Sequence record: NC_129764.1
Strand: one strand, 5' to 3'
Origin: a phage
DNA: 51,099 bases
In this document: in pieces, positions 1,109-51,025 of the stretch
How positions within the stretch are numbered: the stretch's first letter is position 1
Layout of the letters: each line of letters opens with the position of its first letter
Position numbers and translations under genes: made by a program
The notes under the pieces: model-generated
Databases searched by the model: none
Told to the model about the DNA's origin: nothing
The model's input: the letters and a program-made list of their open reading frames with translations, nothing else

Positions 1109-1348
1109 ATGAGCAAAATTAAGCATGACGACCTGAAAGGTGTATTAATGCAACTCAATCCAGGTCAAGCATTCCAACTTAACCCCGAGACGTTCGGATT
1201 CAATGGGAGCTATCGCACAACATTTGAGTTCATCCGGTATGTAAAGAGGGAGTTAGGAATTGATGTTATTCAAGCTGGGCTTATTAATGGCATTCAAACA
1301 TTCATATTTAAGCCAAGCGAGATTCGTTGCCTCACTCTGATGAAATAG
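1109..1348 (+). CDS. hypothetical protein (79 aa)
   Basis: ORF with RBS ggagaaataatcATG; stop TAG lies inside the dyad motif. Confidence 0.55.
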   Translation: MSKIKHDDLKGVLMQLNPGQAFQLNPETFGFNGSYRTTFEFIRYVKRELGIDVIQAGLINGIQTFIFKPSEIRCLTLMK

Positions 1349-1364
1349 CACTTTTTGTTAAAGC
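1344..1364 (+). promoter_or_regulatory. dyad motif copy AATAGCACTTTTTGTTAAAGC
   Basis: Sequence match; intergenic. Confidence 0.6.
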
Positions 1365-1420
1365 CCGGTCGAGCGGATCGGGTATTATCTTTTCATCGAC
1401 ACGATACAGAGGAAACGAAG

Positions 1421-1617: not shown

Positions 1618-2088
1618 ATGGCGACAATTACCGTATTCCTGGCTAAAGATGAGATTGACGATGAAATGTCATTCTTCGCATTCGAGCACAAAACCGGATC
1701 GCACTGGCACACTTACAGCCATTACACGGTTATCCCAATCGAAGCGTACGACGGCGAACTGCTCACTGATAAACTTAGTAATTTCATTGAAGATGTTAAT
1801 GCTAGCGGTGGCTGCGAGTGGAAAGAAGATCACGAAGTTATTCGAATGCTTGAGATGGTCAACCCGGTCCGTCTTGAGTCGTTCGAGCTTGATGCTGATG
1901 TGTCTATTAAGGTGAGAAAGTCTGGTGAGTTATTGCCAGGGATGCGCGTGCTGACTGGTTACTCGGGCCGTAAAGTGTGGCGCACTGTGTCGAAGGTTCG
2001 CCAGCGTTCAGAAACATGCTACAGCATATTCTTTGAGGATGGCTGGAATGTGATGGCTGGTAGCGAAGTAAAATATCTCACCAAATAG
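1618..2088 (+). CDS. hypothetical protein (156 aa)
   Basis: ORF; stop TAG is part of the motif at 2084. Confidence 0.6.
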   Translation: MATITVFLAKDEIDDEMSFFAFEHKTGSHWHTYSHYTVIPIEAYDGELLTDKLSNFIEDVNASGGCEWKEDHEVIRMLEMVNPVRLESFELDADVSIKVRKSGELLPGMRVLTGYSGRKVWRTVSKVRQRSETCYSIFFEDGWNVMAGSEVKYLTK

Positions 2089-2104
2089 CACGAATTGTTA
2101 AAAC
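2084..2104 (+). promoter_or_regulatory. dyad motif copy AATAGCACGAATTGTTAAAAC
   Basis: Sequence match; followed by hairpin ggggta-N12-tacccc containing TGATATAGT. Confidence 0.65.
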
Positions 2105-2166
2105 CGGATCGGGGTATCTTGATATAGTTACCCCATCGAAAAGAGATACCAATCAGAGGATTCACC

Positions 2167-2397
2167 ATGTCAATCGTCAAGAACCAACAAGCCATCGACT
2201 CAACCAATAACAACCGCTTTGCTATCTTCATCACGTCGATAGGTCGTCGCTTTGCAGTCAAGGCCGTGCCGGGCGGGTGCAAAACCTACATGGAGGATAA
2301 CGGGAAGTGGGTGTGGTGCGAAAACTTGGCAAACTTCCTGGTATGGAATGCAGACCTTCAGGGATTCGACGATATCAGCACTTTAATTGAGGAATAA
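2167..2397 (+). CDS. hypothetical protein (76 aa)
   Basis: ORF with RBS context accaatcagaggattcaccATG. Confidence 0.55.
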   Translation: MSIVKNQQAIDSTNNNRFAIFITSIGRRFAVKAVPGGCKTYMEDNGKWVWCENLANFLVWNADLQGFDDISTLIEE

Positions 2398-2917: not shown

Positions 2918-3109
2918 ATGGCTGATTTTATGCACCAAATGATTGCAGTATTCAAAGGCAGCGATGACCAGGAGGTGAAAGAGTGCTTTACTGTCGATAA
3001 GCCTTATAACGCATCGCTAACCAGCTTCGGGAATATCTCATTGCTTGATGATAATGGCGACCCCTGGATATTCGACGAAGATACTGATTGCTTCGAAATT
3101 AAAGAATAG
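2918..3109 (+). CDS. small acidic protein (63 aa)
   Basis: ORF, RBS ggatgttaaaATG; stop TAG in motif. Confidence 0.5.
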   Translation: MADFMHQMIAVFKGSDDQEVKECFTVDKPYNASLTSFGNISLLDDNGDPWIFDEDTDCFEIKE

Positions 3110-3125
3110 CACTTTTTGTTAAAAC
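3105..3125 (+). promoter_or_regulatory. dyad motif copy AATAGCACTTTTTGTTAAAAC
   Basis: Sequence match; downstream hairpin ggggtt-N-aacccc with TATAGT. Confidence 0.65.
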
Positions 3126-3180
3126 TAAATATAGGGGTTGCGCTATAGTAACCCCATCGACAACGAACGAGGACGATAGC

Positions 3181-3669
3181 ATGAAAATCAAATTACTTTG
3201 CACTGGCGGTTACAAGGGCTTTACCCGAGATCTGGAAGCAGACCCTATCGTGGTTGATGCGGTGAAGTGTGATTCCAGTACCGGAGGCTACCGCGTTAAG
3301 GTTGACGATCTGGTTAAAGCTGGCGTGTACGATCTGGACTATGGACTTTCGGTTAGCCCTGTATTTGGTCCGGCTGACTTTAACGAGAATGACGGAACGA
3401 TGTTCTTCTTCGAATGGGAAGTCCAAGCAAATCCTAAGCCGCGCAAGGTTCGACTTCTCAGTAATGGCGGCTACCCGCTGCGACAAGGCTATGAGAACCG
3501 CACATTCCCAGTTATCGTGGACTTTGAAGAAATTACTAGCAATCTGGCATACGTTAACGATGAGCAGTTGCGAGCCGTTGGATTTGTCGGCGGGATGAAT
3601 AAAGAGCCGCTATGCTTCTTCCATTGTAAAGCCGAGCCGTTCGATATTGAGTGCGAGTTAGTATACTAA
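3181..3669 (+). CDS. hypothetical protein (162 aa)
   Basis: ORF, RBS gaggacgatagcATG. Confidence 0.6.
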   Translation: MKIKLLCTGGYKGFTRDLEADPIVVDAVKCDSSTGGYRVKVDDLVKAGVYDLDYGLSVSPVFGPADFNENDGTMFFFEWEVQANPKPRKVRLLSNGGYPLRQGYENRTFPVIVDFEEITSNLAYVNDEQLRAVGFVGGMNKEPLCFFHCKAEPFDIECELVY

Positions 3670-3686
3670 GCACGAATTGTTAAAAT
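3666..3686 (+). promoter_or_regulatory. dyad motif variant CTAAGCACGAATTGTTAAAAT
   Basis: Sequence match; followed 22 nt later by TGGTATAAT. Confidence 0.6.
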
Positions 3687-3740
3687 GGGATTTGTCCTGA
3701 CTGGTATAATCCCCACATCAACCACTAATAGGAAAGCATC

Positions 3741-4226: not shown

Positions 4227-4375
4227 TGACTGCATGGGTTTTGATTATCTTAATGAGTACCGGGCCAGATCACGTATACATGGAAAGCCAACAATCATGC
4301 AACAAGGCACGGGAAGTTATCGCAGAAAATAAGCCGTTCGGATATGAAGTAAAAACTATGTGTGTTAAACGATAG
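4226..4375 (+). CDS. small protein (49 aa)
   Basis: TAATG overlap with upstream stop; hydrophobic N-terminus; stop TAG in motif; below track cutoff. Confidence 0.3.
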   Translation: MTAWVLIILMSTGPDHVYMESQQSCNKAREVIAENKPFGYEVKTMCVKR

Positions 4376-4390
4376 CACGAATTGCTAAAC
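4372..4390 (+). promoter_or_regulatory. dyad motif copy ATAGCACGAATTGCTAAAC
   Basis: Sequence match; downstream hairpin aaggcca-tttgatatag-tggcctt. Confidence 0.65.
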
Positions 4391-4455
4391 CTTCCGCAAG
4401 GCCATTTGATATAGTGGCCTTATTGAAGCAGAGCAACCAATCAGAGGAATCGGCT

Positions 4456-5546: not shown

Positions 5547-5765
5547 ATGGCTACTATCATGACAGCAGAAGATGCAGCGCGTGACGCAGTGGAAGGAATG
5601 CGCCCAAATACCTCCAGAATCGCACACTACTACAAATCTGAGGTGTCGGCAGTGCAATTGGTCCACGAAATTTTAAGGCTCCCACAAGTCGATTCAGCGC
5701 GCGTGGTGACGTGCTTAAAAAATTATTTTTGCATCACTATTAAAACGAATAGCACGAATTGCTAA
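5547..5765 (+). CDS. hypothetical protein (72 aa)
   Basis: ORF; overlaps an alternative 36-aa ORF at 5452-5562. Confidence 0.35.
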   Translation: MATIMTAEDAARDAVEGMRPNTSRIAHYYKSEVSAVQLVHEILRLPQVDSARVVTCLKNYFCITIKTNSTNC

Positions 5766-5768
5766 AAC
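5748..5768 (+). promoter_or_regulatory. dyad motif copy AATAGCACGAATTGCTAAAAC
   Basis: Sequence match; hairpin ggggaatgcgctatgattcccc downstream. Confidence 0.65.
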
Positions 5769-5822
5769 CTATCAAGGGGAATGCGCTATGATTCCCCTAC
5801 ACCAAAAAACGAGGGAACACTC

Positions 5823-6269
5823 ATGAAACATTTGATTTGCATTGAAACGCCTAACGATGAATACACCCTGCACGGCATCGGAATGTTCAAAGGTCACTAC
5901 ATGACAGCAAGTATTTATGATGCGCGTCGCGGCGATGGCGATCTGATGATTACCTCAAAAGAGGTTAATCCGTACATCATGCAGAATCTTGGAAATAACG
6001 AATATATGGCCTACGGCTGCAACGCGGTGTATAAGCATATCAAGATCCGCAAGCGTGTCGTGCGAGCATTCAAGAAAATTGCAATGAAACACTGGAAGAT
6101 GAGCAAGAAAGATGCCGGACATTGGGCGCGTAACGTTGCAGATTCATACTTCTACCGTAACGGCGAGTCATGCTACTTCCTGATCGATGAAATGATGGAA
6201 AATTATAGCGGCACATTCTGCCAAAGTGATTTTGACGCCTGGGCTGACTACGAGGTCGATTGCTGGTAA
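5823..6269 (+). CDS. hypothetical protein (148 aa)
   Basis: ATG with RBS gagggaacactcATG. Confidence 0.55.
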   Translation: MKHLICIETPNDEYTLHGIGMFKGHYMTASIYDARRGDGDLMITSKEVNPYIMQNLGNNEYMAYGCNAVYKHIKIRKRVVRAFKKIAMKHWKMSKKDAGHWARNVADSYFYRNGESCYFLIDEMMENYSGTFCQSDFDAWADYEVDCW

Positions 6270-6288
6270 TAGCACGAATTGCTAAAAC
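6268..6288 (+). promoter_or_regulatory. dyad motif copy AATAGCACGAATTGCTAAAAC
   Basis: Sequence match; hairpin aagggca-tttgttagaa-tgccctt. Confidence 0.65.
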
Positions 6289-6352
6289 TTGCTCAAGGGC
6301 ATTTGTTAGAATGCCCTTCGTTGAGTTAAGCAACCAATCAGAGGAATAAATC

Positions 6353-6994: not shown

Positions 6995-7567
6995 ATGAAA
7001 ACAGCTATCATTTTAAACGGCGCGCCGGGCGCAGGCAAAGACACTATCGGATGCATCCTGGCCGACACTTACGATCACGTAGCGCTACGCAGCTTCAAGG
7101 CGCCAATGTTTGAGATTGCCCGAGCAATATTGGGTGAGACTAATTTCGAATACTTCATGTTCTTGTATGAGGACCGTCGATATAAAGAAGAGCCAGCATC
7201 AATCCTGAACGGTAAAAGCCCGCGCCAGTTTATGATCTGGATTAGCGAGGAGGTCATCAAGCCGCAGTTCGGAAATCGCTTCTTCGGTATGCGAGCGGAA
7301 AGCAAGGTGAAAGAGTCTCACTCCCTTTCGGTATTTACTGACGGTGGATTCAAAGACGAGATCTTGCAGATGATTGAAGGTGATATCCAGGTAAAGCTAT
7401 GTCGAATCCATCGCAACGGTTGCAACTTTGACAACGACAGCCGCGACTATATCTATCTTGACGATATGATCGGGGTCAACGGTTATCAGGAATGTGACTT
7501 CTTTTCTGTCGAAGGCCATCCAGAAATTACCGCCCAGCACATAGCCGCCACGTTCATCAACAAATAG
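6995..7567 (+). CDS. P-loop kinase (190 aa), possibly polynucleotide or nucleotide kinase
   Basis: Walker A GAPGAGKDT at N-terminus. Confidence 0.6.
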   Translation: MKTAIILNGAPGAGKDTIGCILADTYDHVALRSFKAPMFEIARAILGETNFEYFMFLYEDRRYKEEPASILNGKSPRQFMIWISEEVIKPQFGNRFFGMRAESKVKESHSLSVFTDGGFKDEILQMIEGDIQVKLCRIHRNGCNFDNDSRDYIYLDDMIGVNGYQECDFFSVEGHPEITAQHIAATFINK

Positions 7568-7583
7568 CACGAATTGCTAAAAC
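7563..7583 (+). promoter_or_regulatory. dyad motif copy AATAGCACGAATTGCTAAAAC
   Basis: Sequence match; stop TAG embedded. Confidence 0.65.
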
Positions 7584-7639
7584 GTCGGTGGGGTGATTTG
7601 ATATAGTTACCTCATCGACAACGAAGAGAGAAAATCGAA

Positions 7640-8949: not shown

Positions 8950-9115
8950 GTTAATCATTAGAAAGATGGGGATGTTTTGCCAATCATGCAAACAATCTTT
9001 CGAGACTGAATTATCAGCAACCAGTCAGGCAGAAGCCATCACGAAAGCCAAAAAACTTTCAGGCGCTAACCTCGACACTCACAAAATAAACATTGAATTA
9101 ATTAAGGAGATTTAA
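8930..9115 (+). CDS. hypothetical small protein (61 aa or shorter from internal ATG 8966)
   Basis: ORF overlapping the previous small gene. Confidence 0.35.
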   Translation: MKRFKVKLIIRKMGMFCQSCKQSFETELSATSQAEAITKAKKLSGANLDTHKINIELIKEI

Positions 9116-9116
9116 C

Positions 9117-9344
9117 ATGACAGTTTTTTTATTGATTATCGCTGGTGTCATTATTTTTGGTGCTGGTTTGTTTGCTGGATTCGCGCTTGTTGCGGCTGCA
9201 ATTGCGATGGACGCGAAGGATAAAACTGGTGTATGGCTTACCTACTCACCAAAGAAGGACCAATGGGAAATGATTGGCGATCTTGCTCACTGCTACGCTA
9301 AAGCGCAGACCCACCCTAAAGGCATTAAACGACGATTATCGTGA
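9117..9344 (+). CDS. small membrane protein (75 aa)
   Basis: N-terminal hydrophobic helix LLIIAGVIIFGAGLFAGFALVAAAIA. Confidence 0.5.
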   Translation: MTVFLLIIAGVIIFGAGLFAGFALVAAAIAMDAKDKTGVWLTYSPKKDQWEMIGDLAHCYAKAQTHPKGIKRRLS

Positions 9345-9354
9345 TAAATACTAA

Positions 9355-9376
9355 CCCGCCTCGGCGGGTTTTTTTA
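9355..9376 (+). terminator. intrinsic terminator
   Basis: cccgcc-tcg-gcggg stem followed by T7 run. Confidence 0.7.
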
Positions 9377-9393
9377 TGCCTGCAATATGCTAA

Positions 9394-9413
9394 AATAGCA
9401 CTAAATGTTAAAC
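9394..9413 (+). promoter_or_regulatory. dyad motif variant AATAGCACTAAATGTTAAAC
   Basis: Sequence match upstream of packaging genes. Confidence 0.55.
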
Positions 9414-9428
9414 AAAGAGGATTGATTT

Positions 9429-9953
9429 ATGAGTGAACCTAAGAACGCTCCCGTAGTTCAGGGAGGTAATTTCAAAGAGCTATACAAGAAAAAGTTTGGC
9501 ACTGTTCTTGCGAAGAATCGGGCAATGACTCCTGAGCAATTATTCGATCTGTCAGTGAAGTATTTTGAATGGGCCGAAGATAATGCGATCAAGGCGTCAG
9601 AATCAGCCAGCTTCCAGGGTGGCGTTTACGAGTCACTTGTTCATAAGCCGCGCGTCTTCACTTGGACCGGATACCGACTATTCATAGGAGCAAGCGAGGC
9701 CGCAATCATTAAATGGAAACGAGAGGAAGAATACAGTGAGGTTATGGAGTTCGTGGAATCTGTAATCAACGAGCAAAAATTCCAGCTTGCTGCCAACGGT
9801 GTGATTAACGCTTCCTTTATCGGTAAGGATTTGGGAATCGATAAGCCAGCCTCAATCAATATCGAAAACTCGTCAGCTTCCGCATCGACAGTAGTCGCCA
9901 CTACTGAGGATGCAATGAAAGAGGCAGTAAACAGCATTCTTGATATGCTTTAA
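9429..9953 (+). CDS. putative terminase small subunit (174 aa)
   Basis: Position immediately upstream of the large terminase. Confidence 0.5.
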   Translation: MSEPKNAPVVQGGNFKELYKKKFGTVLAKNRAMTPEQLFDLSVKYFEWAEDNAIKASESASFQGGVYESLVHKPRVFTWTGYRLFIGASEAAIIKWKREEEYSEVMEFVESVINEQKFQLAANGVINASFIGKDLGIDKPASINIENSSASASTVVATTEDAMKEAVNSILDML

Positions 9954-9991
9954 CGTTAGGGGCGCGCAAGCGCCCATACAGGAGAATTGAT

Positions 9992-11560
9992 ATGATTCAA
10001 TGGGAAGAACTCGACGCAACTCAGAAGTTAGCGATCAAGAAAATGAGCGAGGCCAATTTCGAAAAAATGATTCGGATCTGGTTCCAGCTTATGCAGGCGC
10101 AGCAGTTCCAGCCTAACTGGCATCACCTTTACCTATGCCACGAAGTGGAGGAAATTATTGCAGGCCGACGCGGGAATACTATCTTTAACGTCACGCCCGG
10201 TTCCGGTAAGACTGAGGTGTTCTCAATCCACCTTCCGGTTTACGCGATGCTCAAGTGTAAGAAGGTGCGAAACCTTAACGTGTCGTTTGCCGATAGCCTG
10301 GTTAAGCGTAACAGTAAGCGAGTGCGTGAGATTATCAGCAGCAACGAGTTCCAGGAGCTATGGCCCTGTAAGTTCGGCACATCAAAAGACGAAGAGATGC
10401 AAGTCCTTAACAGCGACGGTAAGGTCTGGTTCGAACTAATCTCCGCAGCGGCTGGCGGTCGAATTACAGGTTCGCGTGGCGGCTACATGACGCCAGGATT
10501 CTCCGGGATGGTAATGCTCGACGATATAGACAAGCCTGACGATATGTTCTCAAAGGTTAAGCGTGAGCGTACTCACATGCTATTAAAGAACACCATACGA
10601 TCCCGTCGTATGCACAACGAGACGCCGATTATCGCAATCCAGCAGCGACTGCACGCGCAGGATTCAACTTGGTTTATGATGAATGGAGGTATGGGTATTG
10701 AGTTTGATCAGATCTCGATTCCGGCACTAGTAACTGAGGAATACGGAAAGACGCTTCCTGACTGGTTACAACCATACTTCGAGCGCGACGTTTTGTCGTC
10801 TGAGTATGTGGAATTGGATGGAGTTAAGCATTACTCATTCTGGCCCAGCAAGGAGAGTGTTCACGACCTATTGGCTTTGCGCGAAGCGGACCAGTACACC
10901 TTTGATTCTCAGTATCAACAGAAGCCGATAGCGCTTGGTGGCTCCGTGTTTAACTCGGAGTGGTGGACTTATTACGGAAGCAGCCTTGACGCTGACGAGC
11001 CAGATCCGGGTAAATATGATTACCGTTTTATCACCGCTGATACCGCTCAGAAGACAGGTGAGCTAAACGACTACACAGTCTTTTGTTTATGGGGTAAGAA
11101 AAACGATAAGGTTTACTTTATCGACGGCATTCGCGGAAAGTGGGAAGCGCCTGATATGGAGAAACAATTTACCGCCTTCGTGAATCAGGCATGGAGGCAC
11201 AATAAATCAATGGGTGTGCTTCGCAAAATCTACGTGGAAGATAAGGCGAGCGGGACGGGCTTGATTCAGAACTTAAGGAAAAAGACTCCGATCTCAATCA
11301 CACCATTGCAGCGTAACAAAGATAAAGTTACCCGAGCTATGGATGCTCAGCCAGTAATTAAGGCCGGGCGCGTGGTTCTTCCAGAAGAGCACCCTATGCT
11401 TGCGGAAATCATCGCAGAACATAGCGCCTTCACTTACGATGACACCCATCCGCATGATGATATCGTCGATAACTTCATGGATGCGGCGAACATCGAATTG
11501 CTGACCATTGATGATCCTATCGAGAGAATGAAGCGACTCGCCGGGATGGTTAAGCGGTAA
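9992..11560 (+). CDS. terL: terminase large subunit (522 aa)
   Basis: Walker A-like TPGSGKT; size and position before portal. Confidence 0.85.
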   Translation: MIQWEELDATQKLAIKKMSEANFEKMIRIWFQLMQAQQFQPNWHHLYLCHEVEEIIAGRRGNTIFNVTPGSGKTEVFSIHLPVYAMLKCKKVRNLNVSFADSLVKRNSKRVREIISSNEFQELWPCKFGTSKDEEMQVLNSDGKVWFELISAAAGGRITGSRGGYMTPGFSGMVMLDDIDKPDDMFSKVKRERTHMLLKNTIRSRRMHNETPIIAIQQRLHAQDSTWFMMNGGMGIEFDQISIPALVTEEYGKTLPDWLQPYFERDVLSSEYVELDGVKHYSFWPSKESVHDLLALREADQYTFDSQYQQKPIALGGSVFNSEWWTYYGSSLDADEPDPGKYDYRFITADTAQKTGELNDYTVFCLWGKKNDKVYFIDGIRGKWEAPDMEKQFTAFVNQAWRHNKSMGVLRKIYVEDKASGTGLIQNLRKKTPISITPLQRNKDKVTRAMDAQPVIKAGRVVLPEEHPMLAEIIAEHSAFTYDDTHPHDDIVDNFMDAANIELLTIDDPIERMKRLAGMVKR

Positions 11561-11577
11561 TAAATGAGATATAATCA

Positions 11578-11604
11578 AGGCTGTCAATTGACGGCCTTTT
11601 TTTA
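11578..11604 (+). terminator. hairpin plus T-run between terminase and portal (attenuator-like)
   Basis: ggctgtcaattgacggcc near-palindrome followed by ttttttt. Confidence 0.4.
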
Positions 11605-11617
11605 TTGGAGGGAAAGT

Positions 11618-12901
11618 ATGAAAATTGTTAAGCATGATGGTTATAACGATATCTTTAACGGCGGCGCGGACGGCTCACCTAAACCATTTTTTATGGTTGA
11701 TGCGTCATATAACGTCGGCTCATTCTATAACGATAACGCGACAGCGAAAAGAATTGTAGACGTGATCCCTGAAGAGATGGTTACGGCTGGTTTTAAAATA
11801 TCAGGAGTCAAGGATGAAAAGGAGTTCAAATCTCTGTGGGATAGTTACAAAATTGATCCTAGCTTGGTTGATGTTCTTTGCTGGGAGCGCCTATACGGTG
11901 GAGCGGCTATTGTAGCGATCATTAATGACAACAGAATGTTAACCAGCCCTGTTAAACCTGGAGCTAAACTTGAAGGTGTGCGTGTTTATGATAGATTCGC
12001 AATTACAATCGAAAAAAGAGTAACTAATGCTCGATCGCCTCGCTATGGTGAACCTGAGATCTATAAGGTGTCTCCTGGTGACAATATTCAACCTTACTTA
12101 ATCCACCACACAAGAATTTTTATTGCTGATGGTGAGCGAGTAACACCTCAGATTCGAAAGCAGAATCAAGGGTGGGGTGCTTCAGTTTTGAATAAGTCAC
12201 TGATTGATGCGATCTGCGATTACGACTACTGCGAATCTCTAGCGACTCAGATCCTGAGGCGTAAGCAGCAGGCGGTATGGAAAGTCAAAGGTCTTGCTGA
12301 AATGTGTGATGATGATGATGCTCAGTATGCAGCGCGCTTGAGACTGGCTCAGGTTGACGATAATTCAGGTGTTGGCCGTGCGATCGGTATCGATGCCGAG
12401 ACGGAAGAATACGACGTTTTAAACTCTGATATCAGCGGAGTTCCTGAGTTCCTATCAAGCAAGATGGACCGCATTGTCTCGCTTTCTGGTATCCATGAGA
12501 TTATCATCAAGAATAAGAACGTAGGCGGCGTATCAGCGAGCCAAAACACAGCGCTTGAGACTTTCTATAAGCTAGTCGATCGCAAGCGAGAGGAAGATTA
12601 CAGGCCGCTTCTTGAGTTCTTGTTGCCGTTCATTGTTGACGAAGAAGAGTGGTCCATCGAGTTTGAGCCGCTGTCGGTCCCGAGCAAGAAAGAAGAATCC
12701 GAGATCACGAAGAACAACATTGAGTCGGTAACGAAAGCTATCACCGAGCAAATCATCGATCTGGAAGAAGCTCGCGACACGTTACGATCCATTGCGCCTG
12801 AGTTCAAACTCAAGGATGGTAATAACATCAACATTCGCGAACCGGAAGAAACAACAGAGCCGGAACCGGGATTAGGGGGGAAGTTAGAAGATGAAAATTA
12901 A
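11618..12901 (+). CDS. portal protein (427 aa)
   Basis: ATG with RBS ggagggaaagtATG; large ORF directly after terminase. Confidence 0.75.
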   Translation: MKIVKHDGYNDIFNGGADGSPKPFFMVDASYNVGSFYNDNATAKRIVDVIPEEMVTAGFKISGVKDEKEFKSLWDSYKIDPSLVDVLCWERLYGGAAIVAIINDNRMLTSPVKPGAKLEGVRVYDRFAITIEKRVTNARSPRYGEPEIYKVSPGDNIQPYLIHHTRIFIADGERVTPQIRKQNQGWGASVLNKSLIDAICDYDYCESLATQILRRKQQAVWKVKGLAEMCDDDDAQYAARLRLAQVDDNSGVGRAIGIDAETEEYDVLNSDISGVPEFLSSKMDRIVSLSGIHEIIIKNKNVGGVSASQNTALETFYKLVDRKREEDYRPLLEFLLPFIVDEEEWSIEFEPLSVPSKKEESEITKNNIESVTKAITEQIIDLEEARDTLRSIAPEFKLKDGNNINIREPEETTEPEPGLGGKLEDEN

Positions 12902-13652
12902 TGGCGTTGCAACACAGTGGCGCTATCCTGAAATGAGCGAGCGCGCAATGTCGCGCCCCTTACAGGATGTTGCAGCCAGACTAACAGAAAGAATGCGTGA
13001 CGAATTAAAGCCGATGAAATTTGACGCTACCGACGAAGAGATAGATCAGACAGAAAGGTCATTGCTTGATTACGTCGAATCACTCATCGCTCCGATTATT
13101 GGTTCTCTATCATCCGTTGCGCTCGCGATCTATAAATTCAACTCTAAGCAGTGGCTGCGCATCGCTCGCAATGCTGGAGGTAAGAAGAATCAAGCCGTGA
13201 TGCTACTTGCCCTGATTGGTCCTACCGCTGCCGAAAGCTGGTACTCAGGACAATATAATCTGTGGCGATCGCAGGTGACTACTTCTATCAGGAAATTTGC
13301 CGCCAACATGGTTACTGATTTCACTGATAAACTTCGTGCGGCATCCGGTCAGGGTAAAAGCAAGGATTTTGTTGTTGAACTTGCTAAGGAGCGATTTGGT
13401 ATTTACCGTAGCTGGGCCAAAAATAGAGCGTCGGGAATTGTCGGAACCTGGAACAGTAGACTGATGCGGCAGCGCATAAAAGACGCTGGTGTATCTTACT
13501 ATTTCTGGCGCGGGGTGATGGATTTACGCGAACGTGAAAAACATGTAAGATGGGAAGGTAAGCGCATAGCGGTAGATTCCGATCACGTATTCCCGGGTGA
13601 AGAATACAACTGCCGCTGTTGGGCTGTTCCAGACTTTTCTACAGGAGATTAA
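12891..13652 (+). CDS. minor head / head morphogenesis protein (253 aa)
   Basis: Synteny after portal; overlaps portal stop. Confidence 0.55.
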   Translation: MKINGVATQWRYPEMSERAMSRPLQDVAARLTERMRDELKPMKFDATDEEIDQTERSLLDYVESLIAPIIGSLSSVALAIYKFNSKQWLRIARNAGGKKNQAVMLLALIGPTAAESWYSGQYNLWRSQVTTSIRKFAANMVTDFTDKLRAASGQGKSKDFVVELAKERFGIYRSWAKNRASGIVGTWNSRLMRQRIKDAGVSYYFWRGVMDLREREKHVRWEGKRIAVDSDHVFPGEEYNCRCWAVPDFSTGD

Positions 13653-13654
13653 AA

Positions 13655-14767
13655 ATGAAGGCAAAGCAAAGATTCGATTCAGTAAAAATCAAGGCTCACT
13701 TTGATGATAACGGTTTTTTAGTTGACCGCCCAATCGTGGCGCGAATCGGCGCTCAGGTTTACAAAACGCCGCACGGCGATCGAGTTGAGTTCCGTCCGGC
13801 GTCCGAAGTTTTCAAGCAAGATTCCTTGCAAAGTTTTGCAGGCAAGCCGATCACAGTCGGTCACGTAACTGTGACTCCGCAAAATGCTAAGGACGTTGTT
13901 GTAGGATCGTGCGCTGGCGCTGGTATTGCTTCAGGCGTTGGAGTTGAAGTCCCTTTGAGCATTTACAGCGACTACGCGATCAGCAAGGCTAAAGCAAAAG
14001 AAGCTGGTGAATTATCTGTTGGCTACACGTCAGTAGATATTGATAAGCCGGGATGGGGTTCAAATGAGACTGGAGAATATATCTTCGAAGAGGATATGAA
14101 ACAGGACGAAGCGCCGCCTGAAGGTTGGGTTAAATTCGATGCTGTTCAAACAAACATCAAGGTAAACCACATTGCACTTGTTTTCAAGGGTCGCGCTGGA
14201 ATTGCTAAATTAAACCTTGATGCAGAGCAGGAGTTCCCGTATGATAATAACGTTCAATTAACTAACGAGGACAAGCAAATGAAAAAAATTAAGATCGACT
14301 CAGTTGATGTGGAAGTGACCGAAGATGTTGCGAACCATATCGAAAAATTAACCGCGCAGATTGCCGCCATTCAGGGGAAAGCTGATGGCTTCGAAGCTGA
14401 GCGCGATGCGCTGAAGGTTAAGGTTGACTCCCTGCCGGAACTGGTGAAGGCCGAAGTAGAGAAGCAAAAAGCTGACGCCGCAGCGCGTGCTGAAGTCACC
14501 GCAGTAGCGGAAACCGCAGGCGTTAAGCATGATGGTCTTGATATCAAAGACGTTAAGGTAGCTGTTGTCAAAGCCATGCTTGATAAAGATGTTAGCGAAA
14601 AATCAGACGCATATATCGACGCTATGTTTGATGTTGCTAAGGATTCTGATATTATGGCTATTCAGCGTAAGGCGGTAAAAGGCGATTCTATCGAAGGCGG
14701 TAAGCCGGAAGAGAAAAACGACGCCGCACCTGTTACGCCAAATTCACGTTTAAGCAAAGTAATGTAA
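13655..14767 (+). CDS. putative scaffold or prohead protease-scaffold protein (370 aa)
   Basis: Position before capsid; Ala/Lys/Glu-rich predicted coiled-coil C-terminal half. Confidence 0.5.
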   Translation: MKAKQRFDSVKIKAHFDDNGFLVDRPIVARIGAQVYKTPHGDRVEFRPASEVFKQDSLQSFAGKPITVGHVTVTPQNAKDVVVGSCAGAGIASGVGVEVPLSIYSDYAISKAKAKEAGELSVGYTSVDIDKPGWGSNETGEYIFEEDMKQDEAPPEGWVKFDAVQTNIKVNHIALVFKGRAGIAKLNLDAEQEFPYDNNVQLTNEDKQMKKIKIDSVDVEVTEDVANHIEKLTAQIAAIQGKADGFEAERDALKVKVDSLPELVKAEVEKQKADAAARAEVTAVAETAGVKHDGLDIKDVKVAVVKAMLDKDVSEKSDAYIDAMFDVAKDSDIMAIQRKAVKGDSIEGGKPEEKNDAAPVTPNSRLSKVM

Positions 14768-14778
14768 GGGGAAATATC

Positions 14779-15255
14779 ATGGCACAGATTAATGCATCTT
14801 ATCAGCGAGACATGGCTATTGCGCTTCCGGGTATGGTTGCGGATACTTCGAAGTATAATATTGATGGCGCTTGCGTCGTTAACGAAGGTGATGTTTTTGT
14901 TGGCGCTGCCGTACAGGTTGTTCAAGCCCAAGCCGTTGACGGCCATAAATTGGTTAAGGCTATGGAATCGTCTAAAGTGCCGTATGGCGTAGCTATTCGA
15001 TCTCACTGGCAGACTGTGAACAAAGATAATCAGATGATTTACGAAGATGGCGGTGCTATCAACGTCATGACCTCCGGGCGAGTCTGGATGCTTTCCAAAT
15101 CAGAAGAAGCACCAACTTTCGGGACCGCTGTAAAACTTGACGTTGACGGTCAAGAGAAATCTGATGGTACGATCGAAACAACTTGGACCTACGCTGGCGG
15201 CTGGACCAAATATAAAGACATTCAGCTTGTTGAAGTTCAGTTGCATCAACTGTAA
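14779..15255 (+). CDS. capsid-associated protein, paralogue 1 (158 aa)
   Basis: Paralogous to the next ORF (TSKYNIDGACVV vs TSTYNIDGSCVA; PYGVAIRS vs PYGIAFRS). Confidence 0.5.
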   Translation: MAQINASYQRDMAIALPGMVADTSKYNIDGACVVNEGDVFVGAAVQVVQAQAVDGHKLVKAMESSKVPYGVAIRSHWQTVNKDNQMIYEDGGAINVMTSGRVWMLSKSEEAPTFGTAVKLDVDGQEKSDGTIETTWTYAGGWTKYKDIQLVEVQLHQL

Positions 15256-15270
15256 TTAGTGTTTAATATG

Positions 15271-15300
15271 GGGACTATCCTTTTGGGTAGTCCTTTTTTT
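15271..15300 (+). terminator. intrinsic terminator
   Basis: gggactatcc-tttt-gggtagtcc stem followed by T7. Confidence 0.6.
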
Positions 15301-15314
15301 ATGGAGAAAATACT

Positions 15315-16082
15315 ATGCCTTACGAAAATTTAATGTTACGCCCGGCGTGCCCTGGTAATCTTTCGGATACTTCAACCTACAATATTGATGGATCTTGTGT
15401 TGCCCAAGGCGATATTGAGTTCGGCTCCGCTGTTAAAGTTATCGGTATTGTTGACGGCGTTAAGGTTGTTTCCACGCTTACTGATGGTGAAACACCTTAC
15501 GGAATCGCTTTCCGTTCCCAATATGAACACCTGAGCGGTAAAATCCTCGACGGTGAAGTTTGCAACGTCGTTTCTCATGGTCGCGTGTGGACGCTAACTT
15601 CTCTTGATGAAGCTCCGGCCTTGTTCTCAAAGTTACAATTTGGATCTGGTGGTGTTGTTACTGGTAGCTCTGGTTCCGTAGGTTGGACTTTTGCTGGTGG
15701 ATTTGTTAAGCACGAGGACGGGTACATTATTGAGGTTCAGGTTAAGCAAAATGCCTTTATTGTTCCACCTCCACCCCCTCCCGTGGTTCTTGTTGAGTCT
15801 GCGACGATTACAACTAACAAGGAGAGTCCTCAGCCAAACAATGCACCTGTGCAATTTAACGTTGCTGTAAAACCTGACAATGCCACCGATAAAACTGGCG
15901 TGTGGTCTGTTGATGCTGAAAATATTGCGACAATAGATCCAAAATCTGGCGTTCTTACTCCAATTGGTGGAGATGCGGCAGGTAGCGTAATCGTAAATTG
16001 GACGGCTAACGATGCCAGCAAAACTAAAGAATCGATCACTTATGTTTTTGATGCTGCGCCAACCGAAGAAGAAGAGTCATAA
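15315..16082 (+). CDS. capsid-associated protein, paralogue 2, with poly-Pro linker and Ig-like (Big_2-like) C-terminal domain (255 aa)
   Basis: Paralogue of 14779-15255; PPPPPPVV linker; C-terminal segment resembles bacterial Ig-like domain. Confidence 0.5.
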   Translation: MPYENLMLRPACPGNLSDTSTYNIDGSCVAQGDIEFGSAVKVIGIVDGVKVVSTLTDGETPYGIAFRSQYEHLSGKILDGEVCNVVSHGRVWTLTSLDEAPALFSKLQFGSGGVVTGSSGSVGWTFAGGFVKHEDGYIIEVQVKQNAFIVPPPPPPVVLVESATITTNKESPQPNNAPVQFNVAVKPDNATDKTGVWSVDAENIATIDPKSGVLTPIGGDAAGSVIVNWTANDASKTKESITYVFDAAPTEEEES

Positions 16083-16101
16083 CACAAAAATACTTTGACG
16101 C

Positions 16102-16120
16102 TTTAACAAAAAGTGCTATT
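16102..16120 (-). promoter_or_regulatory. dyad motif copy, reversed (plus strand TTTAACAAAAAGTGCTATT)
   Basis: Sequence match; lies between TTGACG and TATTAT upstream of the capsid gene. Confidence 0.55.
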
Positions 16121-16126
16121 ATTGAA

Positions 16127-16153
16127 GCCGTGAACATAATCACGGCTTTTTTT
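16127..16153 (+). terminator. intrinsic terminator or attenuator in capsid gene leader
   Basis: gccgtgaacataatcacggc stem followed by T7. Confidence 0.6.
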
Positions 16154-16174
16154 ATTAACTAAGGAGAAGTAATC

Positions 16175-17134: not shown

Positions 17135-17141
17135 TATTATA

Positions 17142-17168
17142 GGGACTAACTTAGTTGGTCCCTTTTTT
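17142..17168 (+). terminator. intrinsic terminator after capsid gene
   Basis: gggactaac-tta-gttggtccc stem followed by T6. Confidence 0.7.
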
Positions 17169-17183
17169 ATTGGAGAAATCAAA

Positions 17184-17474
17184 ATGGCTAAAGAAAAAAC
17201 TGTTGTTATCGTAAACGTTGGTGTAGCGCTTCAGATGTTCCGTCTTGAAGATGGCTCATTCGCAAAGGTTCTCCCGGATGAAGAGGTGACACTCCCAGCA
17301 TCCGCACTTGAATTGCCCGGGCTGCGTTGCTTGATTGCTCGCGAAGAAATCGAAGTAAAAGACGACAGTGCCACCAACCGGGAAATCCGCGCAGAGATGG
17401 CTAAACTTAAAAAACCTGATCCGTGGGATAAGATGAGCGTAAAAGAGCTTGAAGACGGCGGCGAATACTATTAA
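17184..17474 (+). CDS. hypothetical head-associated protein (96 aa)
   Basis: ORF with RBS ggagaaatcaaaATG. Confidence 0.5.
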   Translation: MAKEKTVVIVNVGVALQMFRLEDGSFAKVLPDEEVTLPASALELPGLRCLIAREEIEVKDDSATNREIRAEMAKLKKPDPWDKMSVKELEDGGEYY

Positions 17475-17481
17475 TCAACAA

Positions 17482-19123: not shown

Positions 19124-19124
19124 T

Positions 19125-19826: not shown

Positions 19827-19866
19827 CATTTCTGTAAAATCATCGTATCAACTTTTCACTATTCTC

Positions 19867-19886
19867 TTTTAACAAAAAGTGCTATT
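19867..19886 (-). promoter_or_regulatory. dyad motif copy, reversed (plus strand TTTTAACAAAAAGTGCTATT)
   Basis: Sequence match directly abutting the RBS aaccaatcaggag of the tail chaperone gene. Confidence 0.55.
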
Positions 19887-19906
19887 AACCAATCAGGAGA
19901 AATATC

Positions 19907-32347: not shown

Positions 32348-32421
32348 ACGGCACAAATAGCTAAACAAATAATTAATGAGGTGTTATAATGCACCTCATA
32401 CACCAATCAGGAGAAGTTAAG

Positions 32422-36731: not shown

Positions 36732-36788
36732 TTCCAGATCTCCAAATAAAAAACGCGTAGAAGGATGTTAACCCGCTACGCGTCGTTT

Positions 36789-36809
36789 GTTTTAACTAAA
36801 AATGCTATT
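36789..36809 (-). promoter_or_regulatory. dyad motif variant (minus strand AATAGCATTTTTAGTTAAAAC)
   Basis: Sequence match; encodes the C-terminal NSIFS-stop of the upstream gene; followed on minus strand by hairpin acgcgtag/ctacgcgt plus T-run. Confidence 0.55.
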
Positions 36810-37244
36810 GGTCGTTCCGATATCTTCCTTCTTCACAACCCGCATGAATTTCTTGTTCTTGCATCGCTTCTCAAGGCACTTTCCGTTACCATCAAACTTG
36901 AGGTCGAATCTCAGCCATGCTGCGCGGTATCCTTTACACCCCTGTCGGCGGTAAGCGCGATGTGCAGCCTCAGCGCCTTGCCACGAAATCATGTTGCGTT
37001 CTTTCCAGCCTTGCACCGTCTGATTCGTTACTTTTAGTGCCTTTGCGCAGGCCGCAGGGCCACCATAATATTCGATAAGCGCATCAAGTCGTGCTCGCAA
37101 TCCGGCGCGTGTTTCTTCCTTATGAATATAGAACCCGCAGCGCTGTCGTGGCTTTTTGTCTTTACCGCGTCGAGTTCCGTTGTTACCATTGATGTGACGT
37201 TTATCGATTTCACCAGTTGACTCCGCGATGCGTTGAATACTCAT
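36792..37244 (-). CDS. putative DNA-binding protein with Cro/YdaS-like HTH (150 aa)
   Basis: ATG with RBS aggagaattaagATG; segment GGPAACAKALKVTNQTVQGWKERNMISWQGA resembles Cro/YdaS-type HTH. Confidence 0.5.
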   Translation of the reverse strand: MSIQRIAESTGEIDKRHINGNNGTRRGKDKKPRQRCGFYIHKEETRAGLRARLDALIEYYGGPAACAKALKVTNQTVQGWKERNMISWQGAEAAHRAYRRQGCKGYRAAWLRFDLKFDGNGKCLEKRCKNKKFMRVVKKEDIGTTNSIFS

Positions 37245-37256: not shown

Positions 37257-37277
37257 ATAGCACTTTTTGCTAAAAAC
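37257..37277 (+). promoter_or_regulatory. dyad motif copy ATAGCACTTTTTGCTAAAAAC
   Basis: Sequence match at the divergent junction between the HTH gene and helicase. Confidence 0.6.
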
Positions 37278-37338
37278 GTTTACTGTATGCCGTGTATTAT
37301 ATCGTAAACGATACAACGATTCAAAGGATTAAATAGCC

Positions 37339-39357: not shown

Positions 39358-39770
39358 TTACAGACAAAGGCGATTACTTAGAGTTTTACGAGCGAGATCC
39401 TAGCGACACGAGAAAGGAGGACGCTCATCAAGTAGATTGCGTATCCTGGTTGAAATACAATTTTCCTCAGCTTCTATTTTGGCACACAGTTAATGAAGGT
39501 GAAAAAACAATAACGTCGGCGCTAAGGGATGAACAGTCTGGATTACTCAAAGGTGTGTCAGACTTTGTTATTCTGATTGGTATAAACTCACGCTACCCGT
39601 TTGCAGCTATCGAACTAAAGAGGGTTAATAAGTCCGGCAAAGGAAAGGCATCACCAGTCAGCGATAAGCAAAGGGAGTTTCTCAAAAAGGTTCGTGATCG
39701 CGGAGGATTCTCTGCCGTCGCATACGGATTTGAGCAATTCAAGCTGGCAATATACGATTTAACGAAATAG
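39354..39770 (+). CDS. VRR-NUC domain nuclease (138 aa)
   Basis: GVSDFVIL ... AIELKR ... SDKQREFL pattern typical of VRR-NUC. Confidence 0.6.
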   Translation: MITDKGDYLEFYERDPSDTRKEDAHQVDCVSWLKYNFPQLLFWHTVNEGEKTITSALRDEQSGLLKGVSDFVILIGINSRYPFAAIELKRVNKSGKGKASPVSDKQREFLKKVRDRGGFSAVAYGFEQFKLAIYDLTK

Positions 39771-39786
39771 CACTTTTTGTTAAAAC
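39766..39786 (+). promoter_or_regulatory. dyad motif copy AATAGCACTTTTTGTTAAAAC
   Basis: Sequence match; stop TAG embedded; hairpin tgccggaatggaatctggca downstream. Confidence 0.65.
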
Positions 39787-39837
39787 TGCCGGAATGGAAT
39801 CTGGCATTATTATCTCACCGAAACGAGAGGATTAAAA

Positions 39838-40551: not shown

Positions 40552-40799
40552 TGAGCGAAAAAATGGTTCCTGTTAAATTAACTGATCAAGGGTTATGGCT
40601 TCTTTATCGCGCTACGTGCTGCGAAATTATGGAGCGAAACGGATTAACTCAAGATGTTATTGGTTGCGATTTATGGGAGTTTACAAGTTCTCTTGATATG
40701 TCGTTCGATGAGATAAAGAATAAACATATCGAGCATTGGCCTTCAATCATTCAGAAAGACGTAGAAGAACTTAAATCCGACACGATCTTACAGCACTAA
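40548..40799 (+). CDS. hypothetical protein (83 aa)
   Basis: ATGA overlap with methylase gene. Confidence 0.5.
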   Translation: MMSEKMVPVKLTDQGLWLLYRATCCEIMERNGLTQDVIGCDLWEFTSSLDMSFDEIKNKHIEHWPSIIQKDVEELKSDTILQH

Positions 40800-40809
40800 T
40801 TGCTAAAAC
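40791..40809 (+). promoter_or_regulatory. dyad motif variant CAGCACTAATTGCTAAAAC
   Basis: Sequence match; hairpin acccggcgaaagtcgggt followed by TATAGT. Confidence 0.55.
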
Positions 40810-40865
40810 TACCCGGCGAAAGTCGGGTATAGTTATTTCATCAAAACGAAATGAGGAATAAGAAT

Positions 40866-44478: not shown

Positions 44479-44539
44479 AATGCTTTCCTTCGGGTCGCCT
44501 CGTTTCGATGAAACAAATATACCCGATACGAGATCGGGT

Positions 44540-44560
44540 GTTTTAACAAAAAGTGCTATT
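44540..44560 (-). promoter_or_regulatory. dyad motif copy (minus strand AATAGCACTTTTTGTTAAAAC)
   Basis: Sequence match; hairpin acccgatctcgtatcgggt followed by TATATT. Confidence 0.65.
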
Positions 44561-46648: not shown

Positions 46649-46702
46649 CACAATAAACTCCTTAGTTGACGGTGTGAATGATACACCGCCAATGTTACAC
46701 GC

Positions 46703-46722
46703 GTTTTGCAAAAAGTGCTATT
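46703..46722 (-). promoter_or_regulatory. dyad motif variant (minus strand AATAGCACTTTTTGCAAAAC)
   Basis: Sequence match about 55 nt upstream of the P-loop gene. Confidence 0.55.
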
Positions 46723-47141: not shown

Positions 47142-47200
47142 TGCGTTAACTCCTGATTGGTTATCTTGAATAAGGTCACTTTATCAAATGACCTTACGGC

Positions 47201-47223
47201 AATATTAACAAATCGTGCTATTT
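47201..47223 (-). promoter_or_regulatory. dyad motif variant (minus strand AAATAGCACGATTTGTTAATATT)
   Basis: Sequence match; hairpin aaggtca-tttgataaag-tgacctt. Confidence 0.6.
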
Positions 47224-47662: not shown

Positions 47663-47879
47663 TTTTAATTCCTTTGTTTCGTTTGGTGTGGGAGTAATAT
47701 ACCTTACTCCATATTTATTGTCTTTAGCAATTGGTGCTATCAGTATTCTGAAATTACTTTACACTCTTTGATTGTTCCACCTAGCACTACTTTCTGCATC
47801 ATTGCTTTTTGGTGGCTATCATAAACGCGAACATTTTTTACGCTGTTAAATTTGCCAGTATAGAAAGTGTGAATATAAA

Positions 47880-48781: not shown

Positions 48782-48838
48782 AACTCTTTCCTCGCTTGCT
48801 GTTGATGGGATGACTATACCAGCCATCCCGGATGAGCG

Positions 48839-48857
48839 TTTAGCAAAAAGTGCTATT
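48839..48857 (-). promoter_or_regulatory. dyad motif copy (minus strand AATAGCACTTTTTGCTAAA)
   Basis: Sequence match; hairpin gggatggctggtatagtcatccc. Confidence 0.65.
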
Positions 48858-49403: not shown

Positions 49404-49458
49404 CTAGTCATTCTCCTGATTGGTTTATGTTGGAGTTATACCCTGATTAACCGGGCGT

Positions 49459-49479
49459 GTTTTAACAAAAAGTGCTATT
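49459..49479 (-). promoter_or_regulatory. dyad motif copy (minus strand AATAGCACTTTTTGTTAAAAC)
   Basis: Sequence match. Confidence 0.65.
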
Positions 49480-49865: not shown

Positions 49866-49922
49866 TTTGTTTTTCCTCAATCTCGTTTCGATGAGGTAAT
49901 TATGCCAAATCACACCGATCGA

Positions 49923-49943
49923 GTTTTAACAAAAAGTGCTATT
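49923..49943 (-). promoter_or_regulatory. dyad motif copy (minus strand AATAGCACTTTTTGTTAAAAC)
   Basis: Sequence match; downstream hairpin and leader catcgaaacgag. Confidence 0.65.
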
Positions 49944-50938: not shown

Positions 50939-51006
50939 GTCGATTGCTCCTGATTGGTTGATGTGATGAATCATACCTAGTCGACATGGATGAGTCGTTA
51001 GCAAAA

Positions 51007-51025
51007 AATGCTATTCCAATAATTG
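51007..51025 (-). promoter_or_regulatory. dyad motif variant (minus strand AATAGCATTTTTTGCTAAC)
   Basis: Sequence match about 70 nt upstream of the 50938 start. Confidence 0.55.

Follow-up and report, generated by a model that had tools for sequence, protein, structure and literature searches.

The repeated promoter cassettes of a T1-like phage match the marbox of host MarA, SoxS and Rob: a candidate family of class II promoters

The stretch of DNA analyzed here (the window) comprises 51,099 nt of the sequence record NC_129764.1, from a T1-like siphovirus (Drexlerviridae, Tunavirus). It is collinear with phage T1 and, by megablast, about 90% identical to phages ADB-2, SH6 and DELF2 across its first 12 kb. 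The window contains approximately 22 co-oriented cassettes, each with a 20-bp repeat; after a gap of fixed length come an extended -10-like element, in most cases with a hairpin, then a short leader, a ribosome-binding site and a start codon. The cassette at 2084-2166 is the focal one of this study, and the six copies that had been named in an earlier reading of the letters alone (the sequence-only reading) are all present as described. The stop codon of the upstream gene often falls within the repeat, as it does in the focal cassette and at 1346, 3107, 7565 and 39768. The features of the locus and of the other cassettes are collected in Table 1.

The core of the repeat, TAGCAC-N4-TGYTAAA, occurs 24 times in the window at up to 3 mismatches, against 0.35 occurrences expected, and about 22 of these 24 copies face a downstream start codon. 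The repeat corresponds to the marbox, the site of the monomeric activators MarA, SoxS and Rob, each containing a pair of helix-turn-helix (HTH) motifs, whose consensus has been given as GCAHWWWWTGYYAAA (PMC6900184) and as gcannwwntgnnaaa (PMC12052159). The TTTT type of the phage repeat (GCACTTTTTGTTAAA) agrees with GCAHWWWWTGYYAAA at 15 of 15 positions, the GAAT type (GCACGAATTGCTAAA) at 14 of 15, and the focal copy ATAGCACGAATTGTTAAAAC likewise at 14 of 15. Across the window, 12 perfect marbox matches and 27 with no more than one mismatch were found, compared with 0.05 and 0.7 in shuffled sequences, and the counts in ADB-2, T1, TLS and Rtp were similar. We also scored the window with a matrix built from 87 Salmonella sites for MarA/SoxS/Rob/RamA identified by chromatin immunoprecipitation sequencing (ChIP-seq; PMC10268841 Table 1), on which the median score of the native sites is 10.8 bits, their 90th percentile 16.3 and their highest score 18.3. 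Twenty-two window positions scored at least 16.3 bits, against 0.00 in shuffles; the top 25 hits were exactly the phage repeats, at 16.0-18.6 bits, with the focal copy at 16.0. Moreover, three native sites bound in vivo are identical to phage repeats. By its sequence, the phage repeat is thus a consensus-strength marbox, that is, a site of MarA/SoxS/Rob and, in Klebsiella and Salmonella, of RamA.

This identity changes how the symmetry of the repeat is to be read. The sequence-only reading had described a dyad, of which only a 5-bp pseudo-dyad is present: the conserved positions A0, C6, T10, A16 and A17 are asymmetric, and the mirror of an invariant G is merely Y. The marbox consensus accounts for all of these asymmetric positions. 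The pseudo-dyad GCA...TGC is itself part of that consensus, and the motif is an asymmetric, always forward 20-bp site equal to the host marbox rather than the dyad of a symmetric dimer. The GAAT, TTTT and AAA subclasses of the repeat were considered as functional classes and rejected, since orthologous cassettes change class, as in window 2088 (GAAT) versus T1 1453 (TTTT).

The geometry of the cassettes was measured on a pooled set of 74 from four genomes, and the position of the -10 element was tested by counting TAnnnT on motif-aligned copies without pre-selection for a -10. TAnnnT lies exactly 20 nt past the 15-mer core, which is offset 35 counted from the G of GCA. This holds for 16/27 copies in the window, 14/22 in T1, 10/21 in TLS and 12/16 in Rtp, compared with about 0.25 on average at all other offsets. 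The rigid distance between the motif and the -10-like element that had been claimed from the letters was borne out: the gap from TTGYTA to the hexamer is 22 nt in 65 of the 74 cassettes, 21 nt in 5 and 23 nt in 4. TG stands at -15/-14 in 36/74 cassettes, and G at -14 in 61/74. Downstream of the hexamer follow a 6-nt discriminator, which is often C-rich, a leader with an initial A, a Shine-Dalgarno sequence and the start codon, the last at a median of 31 nt past the hexamer. The leader, previously called conserved, is so only in part: the initial A is kept, ATCGA(A/C)AACGA is frequent and a subset carries AACCAATCAGAGGA.

Class II marbox sites are forward, cluster about 41 bp upstream of where transcription begins and occur without a -35 element (PMC10268841; PMC8811837), and structures of RamA, Rob and SoxS with RNA polymerase on micF show the activator substituting for the -35 contact (PMC12052159; PMC8811837; PMC10268841). 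Our comparison of marbox geometry draws on E. coli micF and two Grainger-lab papers. In micF (L003), the marbox at 1037-1051 is followed by TAGAAT at 1072-1077, and the RNA is annotated to begin at 1085; this gives the same 20-nt gap as in the phage cassette. This gap would place the centre of the phage site at about -40 to -41 relative to start sites inferred from the -10, close to the class II activator position (about 42 bp upstream of the start site) proposed in the sequence-only reading. The same reading correctly judged TTGYTA to be too distant for a -35, and the true -35 position resembles TTGACA at chance level (2.55 versus 2.54 of 6, with a 16-18 bp spacer). The cassettes thus combine a canonical sigma70 -10 with no recognisable -35 hexamer, and every cassette copy is forward relative to its gene. 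By every sequence criterion tested, the cassette is a promoter of the class II marbox type.

The arrangement extends well beyond the window. The same cassette layout is found in T1, TLS, Rtp and a Klebsiella Webervirus, and the motif is invariant across Tunavirinae, Tempevirinae, Braunvirinae, Webervirus and Jhansiroadvirus. A 2024 re-annotation of phage TLS (PMC11447400) reports a 21-nt direct repeat, aaATAGCACnnnTTGnTAAAA, in 18 intergenic copies that run in the direction of transcription, some 76 nt ahead of start codons. The repeat is also reported there for T1, Rtp and Rogue1. Just three canonical sigma70 promoters are listed for TLS, and the function of the repeat is given as an open question, with a stoperator, an enhancer site or an UP element as guesses (PMC11447400). 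In one viral contig (L012, 304-406), the orthologue of the focal gene retains the ACCAATCAGAGGA leader and the start codon, and unrelated sequence replaces the marbox, -10 and hairpin; the cassette is thus exchangeable as a unit.

We consider it probable that the cassettes are class II activator-dependent sigma70 promoters switched on by a host MarA/SoxS/Rob-type protein. In the proposed mechanism, the MarA-family protein would bind at about -40.5, stand in for the missing -35 contact and recruit RNA polymerase; transcription would start at the A about 7 nt past the hexamer and give a leader of 20-34 nt that carries a strong Shine-Dalgarno sequence. MarA and SoxS are inducible and short-lived, whereas Rob is already abundant when infection begins; Rob would be the likeliest candidate, as the only member present in quantity before infection. 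Candidate phage factors had been suggested from the letters as the activator. A host MarA/SoxS/Rob-type monomer is the likelier factor, because the repeat equals a marbox and no AraC-family protein appears to be encoded in the window: when E. coli MarA was compared by phmmer with all 561 six-frame open reading frames (ORFs), the best E-value was 0.71, and a Pfam scan of 61 non-structural ORFs returned no AraC/HTH_18 domain, the only HTH found being Cro-like.

Several observations weigh against host activation. In E. coli, the classical mutants resistant to T1 map only to tonA and tonB and not to rob; therefore no single host activator is essential, which would require redundancy among activators or a basal activity of the extended -10 promoters. 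Furthermore, much of the cellular Rob is held inactive. Sequestration of Rob has also been suggested in published work (PMC10268841). For T1-like phages, the searchable literature yielded no start-site, transcriptome, binding or host-mutant data. The records of Vibrio phage Vc1 (L008) and Pseudomonas phage Motto (L009) contain full sets of marbox cassettes, and if their host labels, Vibrio cholerae and Pseudomonas aeruginosa, are correct, the reader of the repeat could not be enterobacterial MarA or Rob. These labels are doubtful because both phages have 45% guanine-cytosine content and a regulator 82% identical to those of Citrobacter and Salmonella phages, and the host-range test therefore does not discriminate. 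The Motto record is also annotated with a superinfection-exclusion gene. Finally, the window encodes a conserved Cro-fold transcriptional regulator, the equivalent of T1 gp23. Its gene has a canonical sigma70 promoter of its own and a leader containing a copy of the repeat, a layout that would be fitting for a reader encoded by the phage.

A rival reading, in our judgment unlikely, takes the marbox match for coincidence or mimicry and assigns the repeat to a protein of the phage itself, which would activate the promoters or shut them off; the prime candidate is this regulator, bound as a dimer to TAGCA-N5-TGCTA. Phages usually encode their own middle-gene activators, and the regulator is found in 824 Drexlerviridae records. 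Its gene is among only about three with a canonical sigma70 promoter, and the repeat copy between that promoter and the start codon has the layout of an autoregulated gene. The AlphaFold model of the protein (predicted local distance difference test, pLDDT, of 82) adopts a Cro fold and is matched best in the PDB by Xfaso1 Cro and N15 Cro (template modelling, TM, score ~0.72), and half-sites 10 bp apart would fit an HTH dimer. Yet only 5 bp per arm can be paired in the repeat. One mirrored position sets G against Y and five strongly conserved positions are asymmetric, features that the marbox consensus explains in full; a symmetric operator of the Cro/cI type was rejected on these grounds. All functional copies have one orientation. 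T1, TLS, Rtp and Vc1 share an identical DNA motif, yet most exposed positions of the recognition helix (residues 74-83) differ among them. We estimate, without formal calculation, that the chance of an unrelated site matching ~21 bits of the marbox, together with the orientation and the -10 distance, is well below 1%. The N-terminal 35 residues of the regulator are predicted to be disordered and hold the most invariant residues of the family, IDKRxxNGNNGTRRGKDxxxR. This segment looks like an arginine-rich arm binding nucleic acid or polymerase.

The hairpin of the cassettes was examined by folding a 39-nt segment per cassette, with the minimum free energy (MFE) and its z-score as measures. The mean MFE was -10.4 kcal/mol and the mean z -2.9, with z < -2 in 72% of cassettes; the focal hairpin reaches -13.6 kcal/mol and z -3.7. 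Covariation among the 12 orthologous loci of the focal cassette was uninformative because the loci are too similar, and a cross-partner control, in which arms from different, paralogous cassettes are paired with each other, was used in its place. In 43% of cassettes the spacer pairs with the -10/discriminator region in a perfect stem of 6 bp or more, compared with 4.3% in the cross-cassette pairing, and thus the arms vary among cassettes yet remain complementary within each. In 41/74 cassettes the hairpin encloses the hexamer, with the discriminator as its 3' arm, ending at about -1 to +5 and followed by ATCGA; the C content of the discriminator in these cases is 0.49. In 9/74 the hairpin lies wholly in the spacer, and a T-rich hexamer and discriminator follow, which is the shape of an intrinsic terminator. 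Several cassette hairpins had already been marked as terminators by the T1 and TLS annotators, and the primase cassette (36732-36808, minus strand) contains a full terminator with TTTTTTAT, whose equivalent is annotated as a terminator in T1 and listed as T57 in TLS. An Rfam search with the hairpin and the leader returned 0 matches at gathering score.

Both arms of the hairpin are located upstream of the predicted start. RNA made from the cassette's own promoter therefore cannot fold into it, and it can form only in read-through RNA from the upstream gene. It probably acts in such RNA, an alternative that the sequence-only reading had raised and that we likewise favor. There, with lower confidence, it would serve as a terminator, pause signal or protective 3' end separating neighbouring transcription units, its arms occupying the only sequence-free parts of the promoter, the spacer and the discriminator. 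The minority of hairpins with a U-tract look like true intrinsic terminators; most lack a U-tract, which counts against this part of the interpretation, and the role of the hairpin is hence putative. Alternatively, the inverted repeat could work as DNA, extruding as a cruciform in supercoiled DNA with the -10 single-stranded in the loop and so aiding melting, by analogy with the hairpin promoters of phage N4. In its favor, the repeat is centred on the -10, with the hexamer in the loop, in 41 of the 74 cassettes. However, extrusion is poor for arms of 6-9 bp and loops of 6-12 nt, the nine all-spacer hairpins followed by a T-rich tract have the shape of RNA terminators and the Pfam scan of the 61 non-structural ORFs revealed no phage RNA polymerase, so that we regard a DNA role as quite improbable.

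Table 1. Position, strand and composition of the cassettes and related features in the window.
Feature	Position	Strand	Details
Focal marbox-type 20-mer ATAGCACGAATTGTTAAAAC	2085..2104	+	RE1 GCAC 2088-2091, RE2 TAAA 2099-2102; predicted span ~-50 to -31
TAG stop of upstream ORF 1618-2088, inside focal marbox	2086..2088	+	from ORF list and sequence
Focal inverted repeat/hairpin GAT-c-GGGGTA ... TACCCC-ATC	2107..2137	+	arms 2107-2116 and 2129-2137; extended -10 in loop
Focal extended -10-like TGaTATAGT	2120..2128	+	hexamer 2123-2128; fixed offset 35 from G of GCA
Focal C-rich discriminator TACCCC	2129..2134	+	also hairpin 3' arm; from sequence
Predicted focal transcribed leader	2135..2166	+	inferred +1 A2135 of ATCGA, placed from -10 hexamer; conserved
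ACCAATCAGAGGA in focal leader	2148..2160	+	Shine-Dalgarno AGAGGA 2155-2160
Downstream 76-aa ORF of focal cassette	2167..2397	+	relatives in 12 viral contigs
Cassette	1345..1420	+	marbox GCACTTTTTGTTAAA; spacer hairpin then T-rich TATTATCTTTTC (terminator-like); ATG 1421
Cassette	3106..3180	+	marbox; GGGGTT/AACCCC hairpin enclosing TATAGT; ATG 3181
Cassette	3667..3740	+	marbox; TGGTATAAT; ATG 3741
Cassette	4372..4455	+	marbox; AAGGCCA/TGGCCTT hairpin enclosing TGATATAGT; AACCAATCAGAGGA leader; ATG 4456
Cassette	5749..5822	+	marbox; AGGGGAAT/ATTCCCCT hairpin enclosing TATGAT; ATG 5823
Cassette	6269..6352	+	marbox; AAGGGCAT/ATGCCCTT hairpin enclosing TGTTAGAAT; ATG 6353
Cassette	7564..7639	+	marbox; long hairpin, -18.4 kcal/mol, enclosing TGATATAGT; ATG 7640
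Marbox of small terminase gene	9395..9428	+	no -10 at usual distance; abuts Shine-Dalgarno/ATG
Major-capsid promoter TTGACG-16-TGcTATTAT	16095..16150	+	backward marbox 16100-16119 fills spacer; also in T1, TLS
Backward marbox 19866-19885 and leader	19866..19906	+	supplies TGcTATTAA, then directly AACCAATCAGGAG; ATG 19907
Cassette 5' of Erf-like gene	32348..32421	+	marbox GCACAAATAGCTAAA; GAGGTG/CACCTC hairpin enclosing TATAAT
Primase-gene cassette	36732..36808	-	hairpin CGCGTAG...CTACGCG then TTTTTTAT; closes regulator gene
Cro-fold 'transcriptional regulator' gene	36792..37244	-	rival candidate reader; T1 gp23
Helicase-gene cassette	37257..37338	+	GTG 37339; marbox downstream of divergent regulator-gene promoter
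Canonical sigma70 promoter TTGAAT-17-TATAAT of regulator gene	37296..37324	-	overlaps helicase cassette; TLS equivalent P57
Dam methylase-gene cassette	39767..39837	+	spacer hairpin then CATTATTATCTC
Cassette with top-scoring window marbox	40790..40865	+	GCACTAATTGCTAAA, 18.6 bits; CCCG/CGGG spacer hairpin then TATAGTTATTTC
Cassette	44479..44559	-	CCCGAT/ATCGGG spacer hairpin then TATATTTGTTTC
DNA helicase-gene cassette	46652..46721	-	marbox GCACTTTTTGCAAAA, identical to ChIP-bound Salmonella site
Cassette	47142..47223	-	weaker marbox GCACGATTTGTTAAT; AAGGTCA/TGACCTT hairpin enclosing TGATAAAGT
Cassette	47663..47740	-	GGAGTA/TACTCC hairpin; -10 displaced 1 nt
Cassette	48782..48856	-	GGGATG/CATCCC hairpin enclosing TGGTATAGT
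Cassette	49404..49478	-	TATAAC as weak -10; AACCAATCAGGAG leader
Cassette	49866..49942	-	TGGCATAAT
Cassette, outermost on right arm	50939..51014	-	weak hairpin

Some copies of the marbox stand apart from the cassette layout. The copy at the small terminase gene scores 16.1 bits, lies 15 nt before the start codon and is kept in T1 at 8365. Near the left genome end, a minus-strand copy at 100-119 faces outward without a -10 or a downstream gene and has a T1 equivalent at the same place; this copy (at 117) has a 14-nt run, CACGTTTTGCTAAA, in common with the E. coli mar marbox, and it might be tied to packaging or replication rather than to transcription. Between the minus-strand tail fibre and primase genes, a plus-strand marbox with TGCTATGGG at 35716-35800 faces the primase terminator and could yield a short antisense RNA; none was seen at the equivalent place in T1.

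Such copies bear on the view that the repeat binds host MarA/SoxS/Rob mainly as a sponge, drawing these regulators away from the stress and efflux promoters of the host, or as a stoperator-type roadblock, which we hold to be very improbable. About 27 consensus-strength sites per genome, with scores at least equal to the best native ones and multiplied by genome copy number, could titrate the regulators, and there are copies without a -10 at the usual distance (9398, 117) or placed backward in other promoters (16116, 19882). Stoperators were also proposed by the TLS authors (PMC11447400). Nevertheless, a rigid 20-nt distance to the -10, a forward orientation and a start codon some 31 nt beyond it characterize promoters rather than decoys, and few other promoters are available to express the downstream genes. 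The weakest explanation, and one to which we give hardly any credit, dispenses with a protein factor and treats the repeat as UP-element-like or as a direct RNA polymerase contact (alpha C-terminal domains or sigma) boosting extended -10 promoters, as proposed in the TLS paper (PMC11447400) and in keeping with the A-tracts that flank the repeat and with the ability of extended -10 promoters to function without a -35, but the invariant positions contain G/C (GCAC, TG), unlike UP elements, and the repeat spans about -50 to -31, over the -35 position, rather than -40 to -60. An UP element proper was rejected on the same features, with invariant G, C, A, C and T, G at 2.0 bits where an A/T-rich -40 to -60 segment would be required. 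A sigma54 (-24/-12) promoter was also discarded. The consensus of that class, TGGCAC-N5-TTGC, has fixed spacing; the phage motif reads TAGCAC-N3-TTGC, so that its spacing falls short by 2 nt and AG stands in place of the GG doublet.

In the late structural region (9000-28900), many strong plus-strand intrinsic terminators separate the gene modules, at 9353, 11577, 15270, 16124, 17141, 17480, 19805, 20540 and 26004, and promoter-like sites occur at chance frequency (36 versus 28.6); late transcription may therefore need read-through or antitermination. Given these many terminators, it is conceivable that the Cro-fold regulator is an antiterminator. The major-capsid promoter is the sole strong canonical promoter of the region. 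It directly precedes the terminator hairpin at 16124-16149, whose 5' arm begins about where transcription would start, and its backward marbox may be a repression site for the same factor that activates the forward copies. The second backward marbox, at 19866-19885, lies downstream of the terminator at 19805-19822, which follows the major tail gene. Outside this region, a near-consensus promoter at 31224-31282, TTGACT-16-TATAAT, stands 5' of the exonuclease VIII (recE-like) gene, with an ATCGTAAACGAAGGAG-type leader as in the marbox cassettes; it is one of just three canonical promoters, like P51 in TLS.

Activation by host MarA-family proteins can be extended to a wider picture, which we put forward tentatively and regard as rather doubtful. 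Most early and middle promoters of the Drexlerviridae that infect Escherichia, Shigella, Salmonella, Klebsiella and relatives would be wired to MarA/SoxS/Rob/RamA, which activate the host's responses to antibiotics, oxidative stress and bile, and the same factor would hold back the capsid promoter through its backward marbox; replicating phage DNA would then titrate the factor, producing a late switch together with a collapse of the host efflux and stress regulon. If this wiring holds, phage growth would depend on the stress state of the host, and multidrug-resistant strains overexpressing MarA or RamA could be better hosts. If host activators do drive the cassettes, this would be the first virulent phage family in the literature searched with a transcription programme built on the host stress and antibiotic-resistance regulon. 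The success of these phages would be linked to antibiotic exposure and to MarA/RamA-overexpressing clinical strains, which bears on phage therapy against Klebsiella and E. coli, a field in which Drexlerviridae are common, and the cassettes would offer synthetic biology a set of very strong natural marboxes. The marbox identification itself turns the open question on the T1-like repeat (PMC11447400) into direct experiments with existing reagents.

Compared with known systems, the cassettes most resemble the chromosomal class II promoters of MarA/SoxS/Rob/RamA, such as E. coli micF, fumC, inaA and lpxC P2. Both have an asymmetric site of 15-20 bp, with GCAC, a 7-bp A/T-rich spacer and YAAA, which is forward and, in the phage by its predicted position, lies over the -35 position of a promoter with no recognisable -35 and a canonical sigma70 -10, at a marbox-to--10 distance identical to that of micF. 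In contrast to the chromosomal sites, those described here belong to a virulent phage, number about 22-27 per 50-kb genome and are nearly all of consensus strength (16-18.6 bits, versus degenerate chromosomal sites with a median of 10.8). They are also fused to a hairpin and a stereotyped short leader, and their binding by host proteins is at present a prediction. The capsid promoter has a nearly identical chromosomal counterpart in the E. coli rob promoter: CAGCAAAAAATGCTATTAT / AAAAAATGCTATTAT of rob and AACAAAAAGTGCTATTAT of the phage both place a backward marbox half, GCA(C/T), on the extended -10 TGcTATTAT. E. coli rob is repressed by MarA through this backward marbox within its core promoter.

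The middle promoters of phage T4, which use a MotA box and AsiA, are likewise a phage-wide set of sigma70 promoters without a -35, in which the spacing between a conserved upstream box and the -10 is fixed. In T4 the MotA box is found at about -30, with 11-13 bp separating it from the -10, whereas the repeat studied here has its centre at about -40.5 and is 18-20 bp away from the -10. A promoter of the MotA type was ruled out by this distance and by the absence of MotA and AsiA families among the Pfam matches listed for the non-structural ORFs. The published aaATAGCACnnnTTGnTAAAA repeat, finally, is the same element as the window repeat, and the two agree in orientation and in lying about 76 nt from start codons. 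What distinguishes the present description is the fixed -10, the hairpin and the marbox identity, none of which is mentioned in the parts of that report consulted (PMC11447400). As far as the searchable literature shows, the link between this repeat and the host mar/sox/rob system is new.

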